Part shown: piece by piece, positions 9,579 through 54,220 of the stretch
How the letters are laid out: each line of letters begins with the position of its first letter
Position numbering within the stretch: the stretch's first letter is position 1
Source of the DNA: a phage
Reading direction: 5' to 3' (one strand)
Assembly (NCBI GenBank): GCA_017686895.1
Contig: GCA_017686895.1_4521.1
Length of the DNA stretch: 64,000 nucleotides
The notes under the pieces: generated by a model
The model's input: only the letters and a program-made list of their open reading frames with translations
The model's database searches: none
Told to the model about the DNA's origin: nothing
Translations under genes and position numbers: made by a program

Positions 9579-10069
9579 TGATTAACAAAATATATTGGTC
9601 TAATATTGACGACGGCAATGAAGGTATTTCATACTATTCAGTAGATTGGACAGGATGTCCATCCTACTTAGTGAAACGTATTTGTCAAGAATTTAAAATC
9701 GACCAGCCAGCAGGTATTATCGTGAACAGATACATTAATGGATATCAACCTATCGATGAAGTAATACGAACAACTCAAGCTGATCTTGAAAAGTTTTTCA
9801 ATAAGTGTCAATGGATAACAGGATGGATTATATTTGTACCGTCGGTATGGTTTTTTAGTACTAAAGTAAGTGCCTTTGCCATACCAGATATTATCGCTAT
9901 CTTATTAGCATCTACTATCGTAAGTATTATTGGTGGTATTATTGGTGGAGGTACTATAGGCATCATTATTAATCTTGTTAAAAGTAGTTTACAGGAACGT
10001 AAAGACAAGATAAAGGCCAAGAATAATGAAGTTGAACGTTTTATTACCGAATGCAGGAATTTGAGATGA
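9578..10069 (+). CDS. membrane protein with ERFITECRNLR tail
   Basis: TAATG overlap start; Gly/Ile-rich TM segments; conserved tail. Confidence 0.5.
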   Translation: MINKIYWSNIDDGNEGISYYSVDWTGCPSYLVKRICQEFKIDQPAGIIVNRYINGYQPIDEVIRTTQADLEKFFNKCQWITGWIIFVPSVWFFSTKVSAFAIPDIIAILLASTIVSIIGGIIGGGTIGIIINLVKSSLQERKDKIKAKNNEVERFITECRNLR

Positions 10070-10302
10070 GTATAGCAATTTACATTAAATCAGAATCATG
10101 TGATAGTTATCTGTACACATATGATAAAGATGTGTCAGAAGAAAAAATCAAAGACGATCTTAATATGGACCTTGATTTGTTCAGTCCTATTGCAGATTAC
10201 AAACTTGCTGTCTCTAATAGTGAAAGTCCATCTAAAGAAACGCGTATTGAAGAATTTATGTCCGAATTAATGGCCAAATCATGGGACCGAGATGATGAGT
10301 AA
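10066..10302 (+). CDS. hypothetical acidic protein
   Basis: ATG 10066 overlapping upstream stop (ATGA). Confidence 0.45.
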   Translation: MSIAIYIKSESCDSYLYTYDKDVSEEKIKDDLNMDLDLFSPIADYKLAVSNSESPSKETRIEEFMSELMAKSWDRDDE

Positions 10303-10750
10303 GAAAAATAAAGTGAAAGAACTATCAGCCGGTATTATCTTCATGACAAAAGATAAAGAATTATTCATGGGTCGTGTAACTGGTTCTCGTCCTAAAGGTG
10401 CATTAGCTCATCGGTGGGATATTCCTAAAGGCCGTGTCGAACCTGGCGAATCTCCTATCGAAGCCGCTATTCGTGAATGCGAAGAAGAAACTGGGTTTAC
10501 ACAATATGACCCTGCCTTCCTGAAAGACCTAGGTGAACATCATTACTCAGACAATAAGAATATTCATCTGTTCCTATATACCATCCCTGTAGAGCACGAG
10601 CAATTCAGAAACAGTGTTTGTAATTCATATCATACATTCCCGGACGGACGACAGATTCCTGAATTTGATGCATTCGCTCTAATTAAACCTTCTCAATGGG
10701 AATATGTAATGGGCAAATCGTTATATAAGGTGCTCACTACCCTCCTATAA
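10292..10750 (+). CDS. nudE: Nudix hydrolase
   Basis: Nudix box GRVEPGESPIEAAIRECEEETGF; sits immediately upstream of lysozyme e. Confidence 0.85.
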   Translation: MMSKKNKVKELSAGIIFMTKDKELFMGRVTGSRPKGALAHRWDIPKGRVEPGESPIEAAIRECEEETGFTQYDPAFLKDLGEHHYSDNKNIHLFLYTIPVEHEQFRNSVCNSYHTFPDGRQIPEFDAFALIKPSQWEYVMGKSLYKVLTTLL

Positions 10751-10784
10751 GTAATAAATACCTCCTATAAACGTGGGAGGTATT

Positions 10785-11273
10785 ATGAATATATTTGAAA
10801 TGCTTCGTAATGACGAAGGTCTTAGACTGACTTTATACAAAGACACTGAAGGCTTTTGGACGATTGGTATAGGCCATTTAGTAACAAAGAACCCGTCTTT
10901 AGCCGTAGCTAAAGCTGAACTTGACAGAATGATCGGTCGTAAATGCAACGGTACAATTACCCTTGATGAGGCTGAAAAGCTATTTAATGAAGACGTTGAT
11001 AAAGCCGTTCGCGGAATCTTGGGTAATGCTAAACTTAAACCGGTATATGATTCTTTAGATGCGGTTCGTCGATGTGCATTGGTCAATATGGTCTTCCAAA
11101 TGGGTGTAGCAGGCGTTGCTGGTTTTACTAATTCTCTTCGTATGCTTCAACAGAAACGTTGGGATGAAGCGGCAGTAAATCTAGCTCAATCTAAATGGTA
11201 TCGTCAGACACCTAATCGCGCGAAACGCGTAATCTCAACATTTAAAACAGGAACTTGGAAAGCGTATATATGA
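10785..11273 (+). CDS. e: lysozyme (endolysin)
   Basis: [31 protein letters not shown]... nearly colinear with T4 lysozyme as I recall it; start at ATG 10785 after GGGAGG RBS. Confidence 0.95.
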
Positions 11274-20870: not shown

Positions 20871-21089
20871 ATGAAAACCAAAATGTTAGAAATGATTCGT
20901 GAAGCTGGTGATAAAGGTCTTATGGTTAACACTCGTAATGCAGACCAACGTCAAGCATTCGGTGAACTGAAATCTAAAGGTCTGGTTAAAGCATCCTTGG
21001 GAATCGGTAATGCATTACGAGTCACTTTGACTCCTGCCGGTAAAGCAGTGTTCTTTCAACCTCTTACCAAAAAATCTCGTCGCAAATAA
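20871..21089 (+). CDS. hypothetical small basic protein
   Basis: ATG 20871 after AAGAGGAGAA RBS. Confidence 0.45.
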   Translation: MKTKMLEMIREAGDKGLMVNTRNADQRQAFGELKSKGLVKASLGIGNALRVTLTPAGKAVFFQPLTKKSRRK

Positions 21090-21159
21090 TTGTTTACTTT
21101 TGCTTTAAACATGTTATTATAGACCTATCGAAACGAAATGAGTAAATTTGGAGAATAAA

Positions 21160-22140
21160 ATGTTCAACGTTCAAATCAAAAAAGGTATCTATCGTAATAA
21201 CGAAATCTCTGGTTCTTATGTTGCCACAAAGACATGGTTCCCGGCAAAGCTTAATCCTGAATGTTCCCACTTAGGTGACGGTAAAATTTTCGTTATGATT
21301 GATGGTTCTGAACGTGGAGTATGGGTCTTCAAATCAGACATCGTAATGGAAGGAGTTGAGACGTCACCAGTTGCAGTTGTTGAAAGCACTGAAGATATGA
21401 AAACTCGTATCAACAAACGCTTTAAAGTAATGAACATGATGACGAATGGCATTATTGATGGCAAAATTCGTTCACTCATTATTTCAGGTGCAGCTGGTAT
21501 TGGTAAGACGTATTCTCTGGATAAAGCACTTAATAATGCTAATGATAATGGTTTCATCAAATACAAAAGCATTAATGGTAAAATCTCCAGTATTGGCCTT
21601 TACGAACAACTTTGGCTCAACCGTGATGAAGACAGCGTTCTCTTAATCGATGACGTTGACGTATTCTCAGATATGGACATCCTGAACCTTCTTAAAGCAG
21701 CATTAGATACCGGAGATAAACGCAAAGTTTGTTGGAGCACTGCGTCATCTTATCTCGAGGATAAGGGTATTGATAAAGAATTTGAGTTTGAAGGTACTAT
21801 CGTTTTCATTACAAACGTTGATATCGATAAAGAGTTAGAACGGGGTTCGAAACTTGCTCCACACCTTCAAGCTTTAGTATCTCGTTCAGTGTATCTCGAC
21901 CTTGGAGTACACTCTAATGAAGAGATTATGGTTCGAGTTGAAGATGTAATATTATCTACTGATATGATGCAGAAACGTGGCTTGACTGATGCTGAAACGT
22001 ATAAAGCATTGTCCTGGATGAAGGCTAATGTATCTCGTCTTCGCAATGTATCATTACGTACGGCTCTTTATGTAGCAGATTTTATTTCAACTGATAAAGA
22101 TGGTTGGGAGGAAATCTCTGAAGTAACTTTATTGAAATAA
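21160..22140 (+). CDS. P-loop ATPase
   Basis: Walker A GAAGIGKT and Walker B LLIDDVD. Confidence 0.5.
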   Translation: MFNVQIKKGIYRNNEISGSYVATKTWFPAKLNPECSHLGDGKIFVMIDGSERGVWVFKSDIVMEGVETSPVAVVESTEDMKTRINKRFKVMNMMTNGIIDGKIRSLIISGAAGIGKTYSLDKALNNANDNGFIKYKSINGKISSIGLYEQLWLNRDEDSVLLIDDVDVFSDMDILNLLKAALDTGDKRKVCWSTASSYLEDKGIDKEFEFEGTIVFITNVDIDKELERGSKLAPHLQALVSRSVYLDLGVHSNEEIMVRVEDVILSTDMMQKRGLTDAETYKALSWMKANVSRLRNVSLRTALYVADFISTDKDGWEEISEVTLLK

Positions 22141-22278: not shown

Positions 22279-22566
22279 ATGGATTTTATGCAAAAAATTA
22301 AAGCCGCAGTCGAACTCTATGCCCATCGTATGGTTAGTTCTACAATGCAATATAGCGAGGAGGTTCGCCAGGACTCTTCCTTGAAAGGAAAAACTAAAGC
22401 CTTAATTACCTTAGATCATTTGCAAAAGAGTGCCATAGAGATGCTCCAGTACGACAAGGATGCGTATAAGAAAGAACAGGAAGAGAAACTTAAATCTGAA
22501 AAATTACAAAAAATCCCGAAGTCGGTTTGGTTCAGTGGAAAAAATACCGAAAAAAGTTTCTTTTAG
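22279..22566 (+). CDS. hypothetical protein
   Basis: 95-aa ORF; weak RBS. Confidence 0.4.
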   Translation: MDFMQKIKAAVELYAHRMVSSTMQYSEEVRQDSSLKGKTKALITLDHLQKSAIEMLQYDKDAYKKEQEEKLKSEKLQKIPKSVWFSGKNTEKSFF

Positions 22567-22568
22567 TT

Positions 22569-22597
22569 GTTTACAAGGTCTATGATTATGTTATTAT
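22569..22597 (+). promoter_or_regulatory. early promoter inside a palindrome (approximate coordinates)
   Basis: GTTTAC, 17 bp, TGTTATTAT; AGGTCTAT / ATAGACCT inverted repeat. Confidence 0.55.
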
Positions 22598-22624
22598 AGA
22601 CCTATCAACTACTGGAGGTAAAAC

Positions 22625-23152
22625 ATGAACGCTAAAGATATTTTCAACCTGGTAAATTATAACGACGGTAAATTTAAATCTGAAGCACAAAGCAAGTTCT
22701 TTAATGACGTTGCTTATGGTAACGAGATTACCGTAGACGGAGGTCAGATTTTCAAATCTCGCTGGAATTGGATTGTTATCATCGATTCAGTTGGAATTGT
22801 GGAAGTCTACAAAAACACTAACAAAAAACGTACATTATTCTGGTCTCGTGAAACTAACGAGCAGTACAAAAAGGATAAAGCATCTCGTTTATCCAAAGTA
22901 ACCCAGGAAGATATCGACTTCATTAAGAAAGATATCGAGATGTACGAAAATTTAATCGCTGAAGACCAGGCAGTACTCGATAAGTTTGATGAAATTAAAG
23001 CTTCTCGTGAAATCCCTGACTTCATGAAAGAAACAGTAAACGAACGATACGCTCTCACTTCAGAACGTATTGCAAACTATACAAAACAGAAAGCAGAACG
23101 TATTAGTACTCTTCGGAAATTTGAAGAACGTTTAAAGACGGTTCACGCATAA
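22625..23152 (+). CDS. hypothetical protein
   Basis: 175-aa ORF after CTGGAGG RBS. Confidence 0.5.
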   Translation: MNAKDIFNLVNYNDGKFKSEAQSKFFNDVAYGNEITVDGGQIFKSRWNWIVIIDSVGIVEVYKNTNKKRTLFWSRETNEQYKKDKASRLSKVTQEDIDFIKKDIEMYENLIAEDQAVLDKFDEIKASREIPDFMKETVNERYALTSERIANYTKQKAERISTLRKFEERLKTVHA

Positions 23153-23154
23153 AC

Positions 23155-23179
23155 GCTTTACCCAAGGACGGGTTATAAT
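23155..23179 (+). promoter_or_regulatory. candidate MotA-type middle promoter (approximate coordinates)
   Basis: GCTTTA box, 12-13 bp, TATAAT. Confidence 0.4.
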
Positions 23180-23214: not shown

Positions 23215-24210
23215 ATGAGCATTACATCTGATGCGGTAAAACATGAAATTAACGGTTTATGTGCTTCACAGATTAAAGTGTGGTTTAAAGACCATAACGA
23301 TCGCAGAGCACTTAATTATGAGCAAATTGCTATCCAAGTTCATCAATTACTGACTAGTAAATTTGATTTTCATATGCCGTCTGAAATCTATACTAATCTG
23401 CCGCGAGCACTTATTAAAGCGTGTAAAGGTTATGGAAAATCAATGGCTGACGGAATCTTCAGCGCGCTGAATAAACTTAACGTTCTGTCAATGATTAACT
23501 CTAACAACATCCTGCGTAATCTAGGACGTACTGATTTGTTCGGTCGTGAACAGTGTAAAATGCCTTTGAAATGGATTGTTGCTCATCTTAACGAGAACCA
23601 AACACGTTTTATGGCCGTAACAGCACGTTTACAAATGGGCCTAGATCGTCAGATGAACTTTAAAACTCATCCACGTTATTCAGGTTCAACTGACTTTTAT
23701 AAATGTGAGCTTCAAAAGGTCGGTGGCAAAACCGTCTTAGTAGTTCGTGTAACGTTTGAAGGACGACGTCAAGGATATTTTGACATAATCGGCTCCGGTC
23801 TTAAACATTGTGGATTTATCGACGAAGTTAATATCAAGCGAGACGGCATTGGATACCGTATTGGGTATGTTTGTACTCTTAAAGAAGAGATTTCAGGACC
23901 AGCACCAGGACTAAAAGACGTTAGATATAAAGACGAGCTCGTTGAAGAAATAAAAGAAGTTGAATATGATATCAACCAAGAAGATGCTCTTAAAGACCTT
24001 ATTGACGAACTAAACCAAGACGTTATTCCGGTTCAGAAATTTGAATCAAAACATGCTGAGCAAATCAAATACTTTGAAGCTTTGATTAATGAACTTAATG
24101 TAACTATTCAACAGACTGACGATGAAATCTCACGATTAGCAGGCTTAAATGGTAAAAATAAAACAGAACGAGCTAATCTTATTCAGGTAGTAAAACTTCT
24201 TAAGGAATGA
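23215..24210 (+). CDS. hypothetical protein with C-terminal coiled coil
   Basis: 331-aa ORF. Confidence 0.5.
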   Translation: MSITSDAVKHEINGLCASQIKVWFKDHNDRRALNYEQIAIQVHQLLTSKFDFHMPSEIYTNLPRALIKACKGYGKSMADGIFSALNKLNVLSMINSNNILRNLGRTDLFGREQCKMPLKWIVAHLNENQTRFMAVTARLQMGLDRQMNFKTHPRYSGSTDFYKCELQKVGGKTVLVVRVTFEGRRQGYFDIIGSGLKHCGFIDEVNIKRDGIGYRIGYVCTLKEEISGPAPGLKDVRYKDELVEEIKEVEYDINQEDALKDLIDELNQDVIPVQKFESKHAEQIKYFEALINELNVTIQQTDDEISRLAGLNGKNKTERANLIQVVKLLKE

Positions 24211-24239
24211 TGTACAACCAAGGATGGTTGGAGTATAAT
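24211..24239 (+). repeat. promoter cassette TACAACCAAGGATGGTTGGAGTATAAT, copy 1 (approximate coordinates)
   Basis: Identical copy at about 25231..25259; hairpin CAACCA-AGGA-TGGTTG directly upstream of TATAAT. Confidence 0.6.
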
Positions 24240-24265
24240 AAATTTTTCAACATGAGGAATATAAA

Positions 24266-25225
24266 ATGGCTTTTATTACACGTAGAGAACTTATCAAAGA
24301 ATTTACCTCGAACGCATATACTCCAGGACCTAATCCTATCCGTATGCCTGTAAAGACTCCTGAAGAGATTGAGGAAATCTGTTCATATTATGGGATTACT
24401 TCTCGTATGTTTACCCAATTTGAATGCGTTACTAACACACCCGTTAAAGAGTTCATTAAAAATGGTGAGTTCAGCCGTTTATTGGCCAAACAGAAACTTC
24501 GTAATTTTTGTATTGGCGGTGAAGGTCAATATTTCGCTAAGCAGTTCCGGAATAACCTTAACAATCTGATGGCCATTGCTTCTCGTATTCGTCCTCAAGC
24601 AATTAACATGAAACATTTGAAATATACTTACGATAAGTTAGAAATCATGGTTATCAGTGAGAATGAGTTCACTCTTACGTATAAACCTAAGAATGATAAC
24701 GTTGCTCGTGTATTCCACCAAGCGTTGGAAGTGTTAGGTGATAATATCCACCAGATTAAAGCAATTTATTCTCGTGAGCTTAATATTATCGACCCTATCA
24801 AGAATAAGGGCCATATCGCTATCCAGGCTCGTGTATCTATTGGTAAAAAGGTTCCTGCGCCATGGTGGCACAAAGACTCCGAATATTATCAAAATCTTAA
24901 AAAGGAAAATGCATTGTTTGAAGCATCGCTTACTGGGACCCCAATTGAACAGGCCGAAGTCCTAAGTGCTTATTCTACTTCGGGTAAATCAATGTTTAAA
25001 GGTTTGCCAAATGTGTGCAAACTGTCTGCAGTAAAACTAAATGTTTCTAATGACCTTCTTCCGGTCGAAGATTACCATTACAATCAAATCAAGGCCACTA
25101 TGGACCAACTGTCTGTTGAACTTGACAAAGCACAAGCTAAGCTTCGTGATGCTCAAAGTGTTGTAACGAATCTCCAGTTGCAGTATTCTAAACTTTTTAA
25201 CGCAATGAATGCATTAAAATCATAA
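24266..25225 (+). CDS. hypothetical protein with C-terminal coiled coil
   Basis: 319-aa ORF. Confidence 0.5.
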   Translation: MAFITRRELIKEFTSNAYTPGPNPIRMPVKTPEEIEEICSYYGITSRMFTQFECVTNTPVKEFIKNGEFSRLLAKQKLRNFCIGGEGQYFAKQFRNNLNNLMAIASRIRPQAINMKHLKYTYDKLEIMVISENEFTLTYKPKNDNVARVFHQALEVLGDNIHQIKAIYSRELNIIDPIKNKGHIAIQARVSIGKKVPAPWWHKDSEYYQNLKKENALFEASLTGTPIEQAEVLSAYSTSGKSMFKGLPNVCKLSAVKLNVSNDLLPVEDYHYNQIKATMDQLSVELDKAQAKLRDAQSVVTNLQLQYSKLFNAMNALKS

Positions 25226-25230
25226 AATAG

Positions 25231-25259
25231 TTTACAACCAAGGATGGTTGGAGTATAAT
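25231..25259 (+). repeat. promoter cassette TACAACCAAGGATGGTTGGAGTATAAT, copy 2 (approximate coordinates)
   Basis: Same 27-bp sequence as at about 24211..24239. Confidence 0.6.
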
Positions 25260-25287
25260 GAATCTATCTTAACGAGAGGAAAATATT

Positions 25288-26238
25288 ATGACACGTTCAC
25301 ATTACATTGAATACTTTGCAGGTCTTATCGCTAACGTTCATGCCCAACGTGCTTCTGGTGCACTAGGATTTGATGTTCCACACCGAGATGTAGTAAGTGG
25401 TATTCTTCGCGATTTTGGTACATACATAGGCCAAGAAAATCATATCTGTAAAGATACTCAGAATGCGTATTCTCATTCATTAGGGACACTGCTTCAATGG
25501 TTCAAACGTTCTCGTTTATTATCTTCTACTGTAGCTCGCGATAACATTAAAAACTTTATGAAACCGAGCTTTATTAAATCTGTGACATCTAAAACTGATT
25601 TGGTTGAATTCACTATTGTTAATGATGTTAAAAAGACTCATTTGGCTGATTGGTTATCTACCATTCCTGAAACTAAATTCGCTGATAAATTTGCTTGTGA
25701 ATTCAATAACCAAGTGAATATGCTTTTTAAACATTCTCGTAAATTATTCACGGGCGGTGATGGTCGTACAAATAAAGTTCATGTTAAAGATTGGGTTACT
25801 GCAGTATTCAAACCGACCGGTAATGGTAACGCATCATTATCAATTGATATCCAGGTTCCTTATTACTACTCACGTAATCTCGGTACCATGAAAGCTGAAG
25901 AAATTAATAAGCATAACAAAACCGTTCGTTCATTGTCTTATAAACTTATTACATTGTTAGAGACTATGGATGTTGTTGAAACGTTCGACGAATCCGAAGA
26001 TAACGGTTCAATGTTATACAGTTCTCGCACCCGAATTAAGCTGAAGAACCCTAACGAGTATAAACTTAAGACTATTAAAGAACCTAAAGTAGAAAAAGTT
26101 GACAACTTGAGCGAAGAACGTGAATATCTCAAATCTCGTCTGAAAGAAGTCGAAGCCCAGATTAAAGAACAGACTAAATCGTTAAAAGCTCTGAATGCGA
26201 AAGCGGACGGTTTACGAAATGCCATTGAGTTGTTATAA
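25288..26238 (+). CDS. hypothetical protein with C-terminal coiled coil
   Basis: 316-aa ORF. Confidence 0.5.
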   Translation: MTRSHYIEYFAGLIANVHAQRASGALGFDVPHRDVVSGILRDFGTYIGQENHICKDTQNAYSHSLGTLLQWFKRSRLLSSTVARDNIKNFMKPSFIKSVTSKTDLVEFTIVNDVKKTHLADWLSTIPETKFADKFACEFNNQVNMLFKHSRKLFTGGDGRTNKVHVKDWVTAVFKPTGNGNASLSIDIQVPYYYSRNLGTMKAEEINKHNKTVRSLSYKLITLLETMDVVETFDESEDNGSMLYSSRTRIKLKNPNEYKLKTIKEPKVEKVDNLSEEREYLKSRLKEVEAQIKEQTKSLKALNAKADGLRNAIELL

Positions 26239-26543
26239 TGAAACTACGTCTTTTAGAGGATATTGATATGAGCACTAATCATGGCTTGGTTAAGTTTATT
26301 GACGATAGTTCAAAGATTGAATTTGTTCAGCGAGATAAAATCCACGGTGAAGAAGAGTTCGTTCCTCCAGCATGGAACGAAATAATGAAAATGGTTGAAC
26401 GACGTGAAAATGCTGCCAAATCGGCAGCAAAACATCCATGTCCGGAATGTGGAACTATCCAAGTCCAACTGGTTAACTGGACCACTGATAACTTGAAATT
26501 GAAATGCCGTAAATGCTTCCACAAATTTGAGAGAATATTATAA
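26238..26543 (+). CDS. zinc-ribbon protein
   Basis: CPECG ... CRKC pairs; TAATG overlap. Confidence 0.45.
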   Translation: MKLRLLEDIDMSTNHGLVKFIDDSSKIEFVQRDKIHGEEEFVPPAWNEIMKMVERRENAAKSAAKHPCPECGTIQVQLVNWTTDNLKLKCRKCFHKFERIL

Positions 26544-26956
26544 TGAGATATAGCCTTCGTTGTTTTATCGCAGCTTTAGTTTTTTCCGTTATTCCATTCA
26601 TTTGGAACAGTCAGAATACTTACATGGAAACTAAAGTAATTCCTGTGGAGGTAGTGGAATTAATCTCAGGCCAATCTACAGGAAAATATTCTAAATTAGA
26701 ATTTATTGCAGTCTATAAAGATGAGCAAGGACGAGTTTTTGACAGGCGTGTATCACCGTCGTTTTATACGCTTCTGAATAAAGGTGATACGATAGCTATA
26801 GAAATTCGTGAGATGGATATCAAACAAACTACTAAAGATAACTTGATTTGGTTCTTTGGTACAGTGTTGTTGGTTTCTATCTGTATCACAGGTTTTATTA
26901 CATGTATTGTATTTGGCATTGCATATTTAATCGATGAAAGGAAAAATAATGTTTAA
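26543..26956 (+). CDS. membrane protein
   Basis: N-terminal and C-terminal hydrophobic helices. Confidence 0.45.
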   Translation: MRYSLRCFIAALVFSVIPFIWNSQNTYMETKVIPVEVVELISGQSTGKYSKLEFIAVYKDEQGRVFDRRVSPSFYTLLNKGDTIAIEIREMDIKQTTKDNLIWFFGTVLLVSICITGFITCIVFGIAYLIDERKNNV

Positions 26957-27212
26957 AGTGTACGGGTATGACTCTACTATTCATAAATGCATTTATTGTG
27001 ATAATGCGAAACGATTGCTGACTGTTAAGAAACAGCCATTCGAATTCATTAATGTTATGCCAGAGAAAGGTGTATTTGATGAAGAAAAAATTGACGAGCT
27101 TCTGAATAAACTAGGACGTGAATCACAAGTTGGATTGACTATGCCTCAAGTATTTGCTCCTGATGGAAGTCATATTGGTGGATTTGACCAACTGCGAGAA
27201 TATTTTAAATGA
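26949..27212 (+). CDS. nrdC: glutaredoxin/thioredoxin NrdC
   Basis: MFKVYGYDSTIHKCIYCDNAKRLL ... CxxC redox motif; colinear with T4 NrdC as I recall it. Confidence 0.9.
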   Translation: MFKVYGYDSTIHKCIYCDNAKRLLTVKKQPFEFINVMPEKGVFDEEKIDELLNKLGRESQVGLTMPQVFAPDGSHIGGFDQLREYFK

Positions 27213-28608: not shown

Positions 28609-29082
28609 ATGTTATTATCTGGCAAATTATACAAAGAAGAAAAACAAAAATTTTATGATGCACAGAACGGTAAGTGTCCTATTTGCCACCGTGAATTAGA
28701 CCCTGATGTTCAAGGTAACCATCTTGACCACAACCACGAGTTAAACGGGCCAAAAGCCGGTAGAGTTCGTGGATTACTCTGTAATCTGTGCAACGCAGCA
28801 GAAGGCCAAATGAAGCATAAGTTCAACCGTTCTGGTCTTAAAGGTCAAAACGTTGATTACCTCGAATGGCTTGAAGCTCTTCTTGCTTATTTGAAACAAG
28901 ATTATTCTGATAATAATATCCATCCTAATTTTGTTCCAGACAAAACTAAAGAGTTCTCAAGACTAGGTAAAGAGGAAATGATGGCTGAGATGCTTCAAAG
29001 AGGATTTGAATATACTGAATCTGATACTAAAACACAATTAATAGCTTCATTCAAAAAGCAGCTTAGAAAGAGTTTAAAATGA
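28609..29082 (+). CDS. 49: endonuclease VII (Holliday junction resolvase)
   Basis: GKCPICHRELDPDVQGNHLDHNHELNGPKAGRVRGLLCNLCN ... colinear with T4 gp49, 157 aa. Confidence 0.95.
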   Translation: MLLSGKLYKEEKQKFYDAQNGKCPICHRELDPDVQGNHLDHNHELNGPKAGRVRGLLCNLCNAAEGQMKHKFNRSGLKGQNVDYLEWLEALLAYLKQDYSDNNIHPNFVPDKTKEFSRLGKEEMMAEMLQRGFEYTESDTKTQLIASFKKQLRKSLK

Positions 29083-53047: not shown

Positions 53048-54220
53048 ATGTCTGATTTAAAATCTCGTCTGATTAAAGCTTCTACTTCTAAAATGACTGC
53101 AGACTTGACTAAGTCTAAGCTGTTTAATAATCGTGATGAAGTCCCTACTCGTATTCCAATGTTGAATATTGCACTAGGTGGTGCACTGAATGCAGGGTTG
53201 CAATCAGGCTTAACTATTTTTGCTGCTCCTTCTAAACATTTTAAAACGTTGTTTGGGCTGACCATGGTTGCAGCATATATGAAGAAATATAAAGATGCAA
53301 TCTGTTTGTTTTATGACTCAGAATTCGGTGCTTCAGAATCTTACTTCCGTTCGATGGGTGTTGATTTAGACCGTGTAGTTCATACTCCGATTCAATCCGT
53401 CGAACAACTTAAAGTTGATATGACTAATCAGCTTGACGCGATTGAACGCGGCGATAAAGTTATTATCTTTATCGATTCAATCGGTAATACTGCATCTAAG
53501 AAAGAAACCGAAGATGCGTTGAACGAGAAAGTTGTAGGTGATATGTCTCGTGCTAAGGCACTTAAATCTCTTTTCCGTATTGTGACTCCTTATCTGACTA
53601 TTAAAGATATTCCGTGTGTTGCAATTAACCATACTGCAATGGAAATTGGCGGATTGTATCCTAAAGAGATTATGGGCGGTGGTACAGGTATTCTTTATTC
53701 CGCCAACACGGTATTTTTTATCTCTAAACGTCAGGTTAAAGAAGGTACAGAATTGACCGGTTATGACTTCACGTTGAAAGCAGAAAAATCTCGTACAGTT
53801 AAAGAGAAATCTACTTTCCCGATCACGGTTAATTTCGACGGTGGTATCGACCCATTCAGTGGCTTGTTAGAAATGGCAACTGAAATCGGTTTTGTGGTTA
53901 AGCCTAAAGCTGGTTGGTATGCTCGCGAATTCCTTGACGAAGAAACAGGTGAAATGATTCGTGAAGAAAAATCATGGCGTGCTAAAGCTACTGATTGTGT
54001 AGAATTCTGGGGACCTTTGTTTAAACATAAGCCTTTCCGTGACGCAATTGAAACTAAATATAAACTAGGTGCTATCTCTTCTATTAAAGAAGTTGATGAC
54101 GCTGTTAACGACCTTATTAATTGCAAAGCAACAACTAAAGTTCCGGTTAAAACTTCTAATGCTCCGTCTGCAGCAGATATAGAAAACGACCTTGACGAAA
54201 TGGAAGATTTCGATGAATAA
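53048..54220 (+). CDS. uvsX: RecA-like recombinase UvsX
   Basis: MSDLKSRLIKASTSKMTADLTKSKLFNN ... Walker A and L1/L2 regions; 390 aa, colinear with T4 UvsX. Confidence 0.97.
   Translation: MSDLKSRLIKASTSKMTADLTKSKLFNNRDEVPTRIPMLNIALGGALNAGLQSGLTIFAAPSKHFKTLFGLTMVAAYMKKYKDAICLFYDSEFGASESYFRSMGVDLDRVVHTPIQSVEQLKVDMTNQLDAIERGDKVIIFIDSIGNTASKKETEDALNEKVVGDMSRAKALKSLFRIVTPYLTIKDIPCVAINHTAMEIGGLYPKEIMGGGTGILYSANTVFFISKRQVKEGTELTGYDFTLKAEKSRTVKEKSTFPITVNFDGGIDPFSGLLEMATEIGFVVKPKAGWYAREFLDEETGEMIREEKSWRAKATDCVEFWGPLFKHKPFRDAIETKYKLGAISSIKEVDDAVNDLINCKATTKVPVKTSNAPSAADIENDLDEMEDFDE

Follow-up and report, generated by a model that had tools for sequence, protein, structure and literature searches.

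Three genes of the nrdC–nrdC.11 region

The window analysed here is a 64,000-nucleotide (nt) stretch of phage DNA (contig GCA_017686895.1_4521.1 of GenBank assembly GCA_017686895.1), and our subject is a row of three consecutive genes within it, called p1, p2 and p3. A first-pass annotation made from the letters alone had described three genes of about 320 amino acids (aa) at this place, and open reading frames (ORFs) of this size are indeed found on the plus strand at exactly these positions, each with a Shine-Dalgarno sequence (Table 1). The DNA belongs to a Mosigvirus, an RB69-like, T4-type phage of the Straboviridae, and by megablast the 6.3 kb around p1–p3 are 95–99% identical to 148 Mosigvirus genomes. 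The locus is syntenic with the nrdC.11–nrdC–49 region of T4, and likewise with VR5 and DK-13. The three genes are the nrdC.6, nrdC.5 and nrdC.3 segment of the non-essential, hyperplastic nrdC–nrdC.11 region.

The families are named here after the T4 genes. The p1 protein belongs to C6 (phrog_2257; precomputed PF26899) and is 29–31% identical to its T4, VR5 and DK-13 orthologs (29% for T4 NrdC.6), from which it differs by an acidic insertion of about 35–40 aa (residues ~233–270) that is missing in all three. The p3 protein belongs to C3 (phrog_1435; precomputed PF26897), shares 56% identity with T4 NrdC.3, and is also a clear relative of T4 NrdC.4 (C4). The p2 protein belongs to C5 (phrog_2351) and matches the Pfam family DUF7235 with 416.7 bits (E = 8.5e-125), its residues 15–318 covering positions 1–307 of the model; membership was judged by the Pfam gathering threshold of 30 bits together with end-to-end coverage of the model. 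T4 NrdC.5 scores 420.6 bits, and p2, NrdC.5 and VR5_086 all match with E between 1e-118 and 1e-126. Neither p1 nor p3 matches DUF7235, even at E up to 1.

Although p2 and T4 NrdC.5 are only about 25% identical, both match DUF7235 end to end, occupy the same slot between homologs of nrdC.6 and nrdC.3/.4, and have the C-terminal motif SKLxNAxNAL in common. They differ in that the T4 protein carries two N-terminal and central insertions that p2 lacks, and in that p2 has its own promoter of the PeSL type (see below), whereas T4 nrdC.5 directly follows nrdC.6. The order of the nrdC.6 and nrdC.3 orthologs and their flanking genes, nrdC.8 and nrdC.2, are the same as in T4. The gene sets vary: the T4 row reads C6, C5, C4, C3, the window has C6, C5 and C3 and lacks nrdC.4, and Dhakavirus VR5 and Gaprivervirus DK-13 have C6, C5 and C4 and lack nrdC.3.

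Searches of Pfam, PHROGs and NCBIfam matched the three proteins to families of unknown function only, with no cross-family match and no domain of known function, and a sequence search of the PDB with the three family profiles returned nothing below E 0.03. Homologous-protein searches for the three gave 4, 19 and 34 matches, all close relatives; a search of IMG/VR gave only 7 related loci; and the C3 profile, run exhaustively through HMMER, retrieved C3 members, fragments of them and one C4 member only. The families are thus narrow, and deep alignments are not obtainable. In many GenBank records (for example ATK47) most nrdC.x genes, the orthologs of p1–p3 included, are labelled "thioredoxin". 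We rejected this label for p1–p3, which gave no thioredoxin or glutaredoxin match in Pfam even at E up to 1; it is a propagation of the locus name nrdC.x, the only true thioredoxin here being NrdC itself (Table 1), and a widespread mis-annotation is thereby corrected.

Profile comparisons link the three families

That the three proteins show no obvious direct similarity, as the first-pass annotation had remarked, is borne out by pairwise BLASTP, which gave nothing significant among them (E at least 0.26). Family alignments of C3, C4, C5 and C6, drawing on the window, on eleven loci and on proteins recovered by searching, were compared by hhalign. C3 and C4 matched with a probability of 97.6% (E = 3.5e-12), and the C3 profile also matched the C4 member P0061 in HMMER with E = 2.6e-6 among 1.84 billion proteins. 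C5 matched the merged C3+C4 profile with 89–91% (E of about 2e-6), collinearly over 150–235 columns. C6 gave E values of 0.015–0.1 with the single families and 85% (E = 6e-6) with the merged C3+C4+C5 profile, in an alignment that covers residues 47–193 of p1 and so lies outside the coiled coil, in the N-terminal and central domain.

These scores are well above those of the controls. Block-shuffled columns gave 17 ± 3 with a maximum of 27, against observed hhalign scores of 47.6, 50.8 and 32.0; in the individual tests, C5 against C3+C4 scored 50.8 (null 17.2 ± 3.1, maximum 27) and C6 against C3+C4+C5 scored 47.6 (null 16.6 ± 3.3). Reversed and column-shuffled profiles were all beaten, as were nrdC.8, nrdC.10 and those neighbours that lack a coiled coil; E values were 0.06–0.7 for reversed profiles, nrdC.8 and nrdC.10, and 0.06–0.9 over all reversed and unrelated profiles.

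In other genera of the Tevenvirinae, the interval from nrdC.10 to nrdC was searched for intermediates. Proteins of 292–332 aa with the same type of C-terminal helix were found in Karamvirus (Entb_332 and its relatives), Jiaodavirus (YP11_324) and Tegunavirus (Yen9_292), as single relatives in the same genomic slot, while the tail-less neighbouring genes in those genera, an internal negative control, gave no profile match. The Karamvirus family alone matched C3+C4 with 93% (E = 2.6e-7, 261 columns) and C6 with E = 2.5e-4 over 196 columns, and YP11_324 matched the Karamvirus family with 90%. With intermediates included, C6 joined with Entb_332 and Yen9_292 matched C3+C4 joined with YP11 with 97% (E = 5e-11, 223 columns), and C5 against C3+C4 gave 96% (E = 2.7e-9). 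A HMMER search with the extended C6 profile reached p3 at E = 6e-4 among only 87 ORFs, which places profile-to-sequence searching at its detection limit and explains why PHROGs and Pfam hold three separate families. No further paralog was found among the 87 ORFs of at least 100 aa scanned in the window. The possibility that the nrdC.8 protein, which has a coiled-coil-like tail, is a truncated relative was rejected (E at least 0.06 in hhalign), and a MAFFT merge of the three families, in which motif 1 of p3 was misaligned, was not used as a query.

The collinear alignments over the N-terminal and central domain, scoring above all controls, thus bear out the proposal of diverged paralogs; on the strength of these profile comparisons it is very probable that p1–p3 are paralogs. 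They would be ancient, strongly diverged members of one Tevenvirinae-specific family, of which T4 has nrdC.3, nrdC.4, nrdC.5 and nrdC.6 in a row. The comparisons of T4-like genomes that were examined do not mention a paralogy of nrdC.3–nrdC.6. The genes themselves and the type of promoter cassette are already known to T4 biology; what is new is that nrdC.3, nrdC.4, nrdC.5, nrdC.6 and their relatives are joined in one family, which includes a known anti-Dsr1 protein.

Protein architecture

Two helix motifs anchor every profile alignment. Motif 1 reads LNKLNVLSMINSNNILRNL in p1, IKNGEFSRLLAKQKLRNF in p2 and FKRSRLLSSTVARDNIKNF in p3, with the consensus x-S-R/x-L-S-x-x-x-A-x-x-x-L-x-N-F; motif 2 reads IVAHLNENQTRFMAVTARLQMGLDRQ, FAKQFRNNLNNLMAIASRI and FACEFNNQVNMLFKHSRKLFTGGDGRT, respectively, with the consensus F-x-x-x-F-x-x-N-x-x-x-L-x-x-x-A-x-R-L. 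The proteins appear to follow a common plan, in which a helical N-terminal part with the two motifs would be followed by a small alpha/beta middle, a variable linker and a C-terminal amphipathic or coiled-coil helix.

A C-terminal heptad or coiled-coil segment had been ascribed to each protein from the sequence alone. Crude scoring of the a and d positions against shuffles upholds it for p2 (residues 269–303, z = 3.4, 0 of 200 shuffles) and p3 (residues 279–313, z = 4.2, 0 of 200), for both of which AlphaFold2 (AF2) also predicts helices; in p1 the pattern is weak (residues 281–308, z = 1.7, 22 of 300). A C-terminal ending of the form L-x-x-A/V-h-x-x-L-K is common to members of C3, C4, C5 and C6.

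The AF2 models of p3 (from the merged 37-sequence alignment) and p2 (from 14 sequences) are both of low confidence, with predicted local distance difference test (pLDDT) values of 49.4 and 41.1. Both contain a long C-terminal helix (residues 266–318 of p2 and 275–315 of p3), which in p2 is the sole part of the model with a pLDDT of 64–82. In these low-confidence models the elements come in the same order, running from several helices at the N-terminus through three strands, a long helix, a pair of strands and a linker to the long C-terminal helix, and this order fits the hhalign register, helix 144–168 of p2 falling against helix 203–226 of p3. Such agreement between predicted structures is weak evidence of paralogy. 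Foldseek searches of BFVD with the two models gave significant matches to sequence orthologs only; the next matches, T4-like phage proteins of about 330 aa (E5EYP0/1, CBH8, Merlin and Melville), were not significant.

Promoter cassettes

A 27-bp repeat, TACAACCAAGGATGGTTGGAGTATAAT, is found at 24213–24239, upstream of p2, and at 25233–25259, upstream of p3, identical in 27 of 27 positions as had been noted at first reading. No other copy with up to three mismatches occurs in the 64 kb, where 0 would be expected by chance. Judged by their −35 and −10 elements, the promoters of p2 and p3 are sigma70-like and of early type. The spacer holds a hairpin with a 6-bp stem and an AGGA loop (stems of 5–7 bp across the subtype), which is present in the minimum free energy folds. 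Its stem covaries: over nine variants from four genera pairing was 90.7%, compared with 65.5 ± 4.6 in shuffles, compensatory changes were seen at four of the six stem pairs, and pairing fell to 17–44% when the partner strand was slid. Exact matches to the core CCAAGGAYGG number three in the 64 kb, all of them between genes and one upstream of each of p1, p2 and p3; in other loci the core precedes nrdC.7/nrdC.6, nrdC.4 and nrdC.3. In most early-type cassettes, including those of the window (24230–24233 and 25250–25253) and of other loci, GGAG lies directly between the hairpin and the −10 element. GGAG is the target of the T4 endoribonuclease RegB.

The cassettes fit the definition of the PeSL (promoter-early stem-loop) elements known from T4-type phages (PMC2839356, Arbiol et al. 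2010; PMC4122927, Comeau et al. 2014). These combine a strong sigma70-like promoter with a stem-loop, mostly between −35 and −10, lie in hyperplastic regions and mediate modular shuffling; insertions, deletions and the formation of mini-circles are documented for them (PMC2839356). The order of stop codon, −35, stem-loop, −10, Shine-Dalgarno sequence and ATG is the same; the window cassettes, too, are short intergenic repeats of a hyperplastic region, each ahead of a gene without assigned function; and their −35 (TTTACW) and −10 (TAYWAT) elements match the consensus for the PST/T4 pair. They differ in the specific AGGA tetraloop hairpin with its covarying stems, in adjoining only this gene family in the loci examined, in that one copy joins the hairpin to a MotA box, in the manner of the PmSL described for nt-1, and in that their stem-loops lack a U-tract. 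A PeSL subtype that has a covarying hairpin and is tied to one gene family is thus documented.

The copy with the MotA box is that of p1. All three genes had been read at first as early genes with their own promoters, which agrees with what we find for p2 and p3; p1 has its own promoter as well, of a middle-type layout and not an early one. The consensus of the MotA box is (a/t)(a/t)(a/t)TGCTTtA, placed 12 ± 1 bp upstream of a −10 element TAtaaT (PMC2988021), and the p1 box agrees with it in 9 of 10 positions with a spacer of 13 nt. That spacer holds the hairpin ACCC-AAGGAC-GGGT (23160–23173), and the cassette is related to those of p2 and p3 through the core CCAAGGACGG. A TTTACC was considered as a sigma70 −35 element for p1 and rejected, since at 11 nt from TATAAT it is too close. 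The orthologous T4 cassette stands right after nrdC.8, and its −10 element puts +1 at 53325, the mapped start of PnrdC.7, a MotA/AsiA-dependent middle promoter (Table 1 of the Hinton 2010 review, PMC2988021). The GCTTTA core, the 13-nt spacing and TATAAT are common to both; the stem is ACCC/GGGT in the window and TATACCA/TGGTATA in T4, and the window promoter would directly drive p1, nrdC.7 being elsewhere. By orthology with the mapped T4 promoter PnrdC.7, the p1 cassette is assigned as a MotA-type middle promoter, and read-through from upstream is likely to serve p1 in addition.

Age of the duplications

Identity among p1, p2 and p3 is below 20%, while each is 22–56% identical to its orthologs in T4, Dhakavirus or Gaprivervirus. 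As the paralogs are nearer to the orthologs of other genera than to their neighbours in the genome, the duplications are older than the separation of Tequatrovirus, Mosigvirus, Dhakavirus and Gaprivervirus. No cassette precedes T4 nrdC.5, and this, together with the complete identity of the two 27-bp copies, indicates that the cassettes are younger than the genes or are homogenised mobile promoter elements. The first-pass suggestion that the paralogs arose by cassette-mediated duplication is contradicted by both observations; plausibly, the cassettes shuffle modules and did not create the paralogs.

Among Mosigvirus genomes the intergenic cassettes are 95–100% conserved, mostly 100%, compared with 92–98% for the flanking coding sequence, which has local hot spots as low as 65–76%. 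Intervals of 100 nt drop to 65–83% identity at two hot spots, ~24900–25000 in p2 and ~25900–26000 in p3, both of them before the C-terminal helix, against 95–100% elsewhere. The differing gene sets of the genera (with or without C4, with or without C3, and with nrdC.7 moved) are a plausible product of PeSL-mediated shuffling, as would be expected of such elements.

Possible function

A T4 deletion mutant fails to plate on Escherichia coli with dsr1, a sirtuin defence gene of ECOR17, and nrdC.5 alone in trans restores plating (Srikant, Guegler and Laub, eLife 2022, PMC9391042); the evidence is genetic and concerns the T4 protein. The genes of the row also evolve fast: identity between the window and T4 is 29% for C6 and 25% for C5, compared with 83% for nrdC.8, 78% for nrdC.10 and 90% for nrdC, gene 49 falling within 78–90%. 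This fast divergence, the variable gene content, the pre-replicative expression and the dispensability of the region suggest, by analogy with NrdC.5, that the row is most likely a diversified counter-defence arsenal.

Under this interpretation the compact promoter-hairpin cassette of each gene would switch it on ahead of replication, and the products would be effectors of counter-defence or host takeover. A host target may be bound by the N-terminal and central domain, which evolves fast; for C5 the target pathway would be that of the SIR2-type defence protein Dsr1, as genetic tests have shown for T4 NrdC.5. Oligomerisation, or docking to a common partner, may fall to the conserved C-terminal helix. 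From its PeSL cassette each module would gain autonomous expression and short homologies for gain, loss and exchange between phages. We favour this account as a whole, of ancient paralogs with their own PeSL promoters acting as counter-defence or host-takeover effectors, although with less assurance than the paralogy by itself.

Few inhibitors of the sirtuin defence Dsr1, itself poorly understood, are known, and T4 NrdC.5 is one of them. Its place as one branch of a paralog family with four branches, if right, adds three further candidate anti-defence families, conserved in about 650–740 of the phage records searched (742; 654), flags the conserved core with its two helix motifs and the C-terminal helix for mutagenesis, and would explain the extreme divergence of the nrdC.3–nrdC.6 genes between otherwise close phages.

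Alternative explanations

Were p1–p3 unrelated ORFans, their like lengths and C-terminal helices would have come about by convergence or by the exchange of short modules, and shallow alignments of similar composition would have produced the profile scores as artefacts. Several of our results go in that direction and weigh against a common family: no pairwise or profile-to-sequence search links p1 significantly to p2 or p3, PHROGs and Pfam list three distinct families, C6 is linked only weakly unless intermediates or merged profiles are used, both AF2 models are poor and the p2 and p3 models give no structural confirmation beyond sequence orthologs, and the alignments are shallow (an effective number of sequences, Neff, of about 2–4) because the families occur in few genera. 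Yet the alignments are collinear over 130–260 columns and centred on the pair of N-terminal helix motifs and not on the coiled coil; the scores stand 5–11 standard deviations above the block-shuffled nulls, with reversed and unrelated controls at E of at least 0.06; the independent Karamvirus and Jiaodavirus families link to several of the families; and all members occupy the same genomic slot. We therefore regard unrelated origins as unlikely. A recent tandem duplication in which the repeated cassettes recombined and the copies then diverged rapidly would account for the identical 27-bp copies on both sides of p2 and would draw on the insertions, deletions and mini-circles documented for PeSL elements in T4-type phages (PMC2839356). 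It is very improbable, as the orthologs are far closer to one another (56% for C3, about 30% for C6 and about 25% for C5) than the paralogs, the coding sequences have diverged beyond detection by BLAST while the cassettes remain identical, and the lack of a cassette at T4 nrdC.5 makes the cassette copies younger than the genes.

Even if p1–p3 are true paralogs, they may be non-essential host-takeover or regulatory proteins that act early on the host nucleoid, transcription or metabolism, the anti-Dsr1 effect of NrdC.5 being indirect or peculiar to that protein. Anti-defence activity is known for one T4 protein, from genetics, and p2, whose own anti-Dsr1 activity is presumed, is only 25% identical to it; for C3, C4 and C6 we infer the role entirely. 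The later literature examined gives no mechanism for NrdC.5, and none of the proteins matches a domain of known function. As to the cassettes, the stem-loop shows no mark of a terminator or attenuator: no U-tract follows the stem, and an intrinsic-terminator scan does not flag the hairpin sites. Set against a general host-takeover role are the fast evolution relative to neighbouring genes, the gene content that varies by genus, the hot spots within one genus, and pre-replicative genes in a dispensable region whose deletion narrows the host range (PMC9391042), all of them features typical of arms-race genes; we hold this explanation to be possible but the less probable one. The counter-defence interpretation can also be taken further, tentatively: nrdC.3–nrdC.6 and the Karamvirus, Jiaodavirus and Tegunavirus relatives might form one counter-defence superfamily in which each paralog neutralises a different immune system (Dsr1 in the case of C5), the common coiled coil forms homo- or hetero-oligomers, and the AGGA-hairpin cassettes serve as recombination handles for swapping. 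So specific a scheme is a speculation that we do not expect to hold in full.

Neighbouring genes and database records

Table 1. Positions of the genes, promoter cassettes and protein segments in the window.
Feature	Position	Strand	Remarks
nrdC.10	21148–22140		AAA ATPase; followed by one small ORF
nrdC.8	22625–23152		175 aa; tail coiled-coil-like
p1 promoter cassette, putative	23151–23179	+	MotA box aaaCGCTTTA 23151–23160, 13-nt spacer, TATAAT 23174–23179
p1	23215–24210	+	331 aa; ortholog of T4 nrdC.6
p1 conserved core, residues ~73–205	23431–23829	+	motif 1 LNKLNVLSMINSNNILRNL, motif 2 IVAHLNENQTRFMAVTARLQMGLDRQ; from hhalign alignments
p1 C-terminal helical segment, predicted	24055–24207	+	four heptads 281–308, G-rich break, short terminal helix, motif ANLIQVVKLLKE
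p2 PeSL-type early promoter, putative	24211–24239	+	TGTACA-17-TATAAT (10/12); hairpin CAACCA-AGGA-TGGTTG 24215–24230 in spacer
p2	24266–25225	+	319 aa; DUF7235 / T4 NrdC.5 family
p2 conserved core, residues ~55–170	24428–24775	+	motif 1 VKEFIKNGEFSRLLAKQKLRNF, motif 2 YFAKQFRNNLNNLMAIASRI; from hhalign alignments
p2 C-terminal coiled-coil-like helix, residues 266–318	25061–25222	+	ends KLFNAMNALKS
p3 PeSL-type early promoter, putative	25231–25259	+	TTTACA-17-TATAAT (11/12); hairpin 25235–25250
p3	25288–26238	+	316 aa; ortholog of T4 nrdC.3
p3 conserved core, residues ~60–233	25465–25986	+	motif 1 LQWFKRSRLLSSTVARDNIKNF, motif 2 FADKFACEFNNQVNMLFKHSRKLFTGGDGRT; from hhalign alignments
p3 C-terminal coiled-coil-like helix, residues 275–315	26110–26235	+	ends GLRNAIELL
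nrdC.2	26238–26543		next after p3
nrdC.7-like membrane protein	26543–26956		137 aa
NrdC thioredoxin	26934–27212		
Endonuclease VII	28609–29082		farther along

The membrane protein ORF at 26543–26956 is 42% identical to T4 nrdC.7 and lies downstream of nrdC.2, at the position of T4 nrdC.1, and not upstream of nrdC.6; in T4, nrdC.7 sits between nrdC.8 and nrdC.6, so that the window copy is a relocated module relative to T4. A promoter-like site is found at 26211–26239 (TTTACG, 17 nt, TGn-TATAAT; 10 of 12 positions), inside the last codons of p3 and overlapping the start codon of nrdC.2. A second, distinct pair of promoter cassettes stands at 21087–21129 and 22564–22606, upstream of nrdC.10 and nrdC.8, respectively; its members are 77% identical over 43 nt and share GTTTAC ... 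TGTTATTATAGACCTATC.

Two database records of related genes deserve mention. The nrdC.6 gene of the T4 reference (NC_000866; ~9997–10894 of the retrieved T4 locus, minus strand; 275 aa) seems to carry a frameshift close to the 3' end: as annotated, the protein ends in ...ELIFLFNNMMMKFSDYLD, and a 70-nt "intergenic" stretch encodes in another frame the conserved C-terminal motif ...LSSKAKSEREKLIKIVDLLKS. A related Tequatrovirus contig has an intact nrdC.6 of 295 aa. In the RB69 record, NrdC.5 (300 aa) matches p2 with 95% identity along 74% of its length and then continues into an unrelated tail, ...KPPWTNCLLNWTRHKLSSVMLKVL, which is probably due to a frameshift or a sequencing error of the old record.

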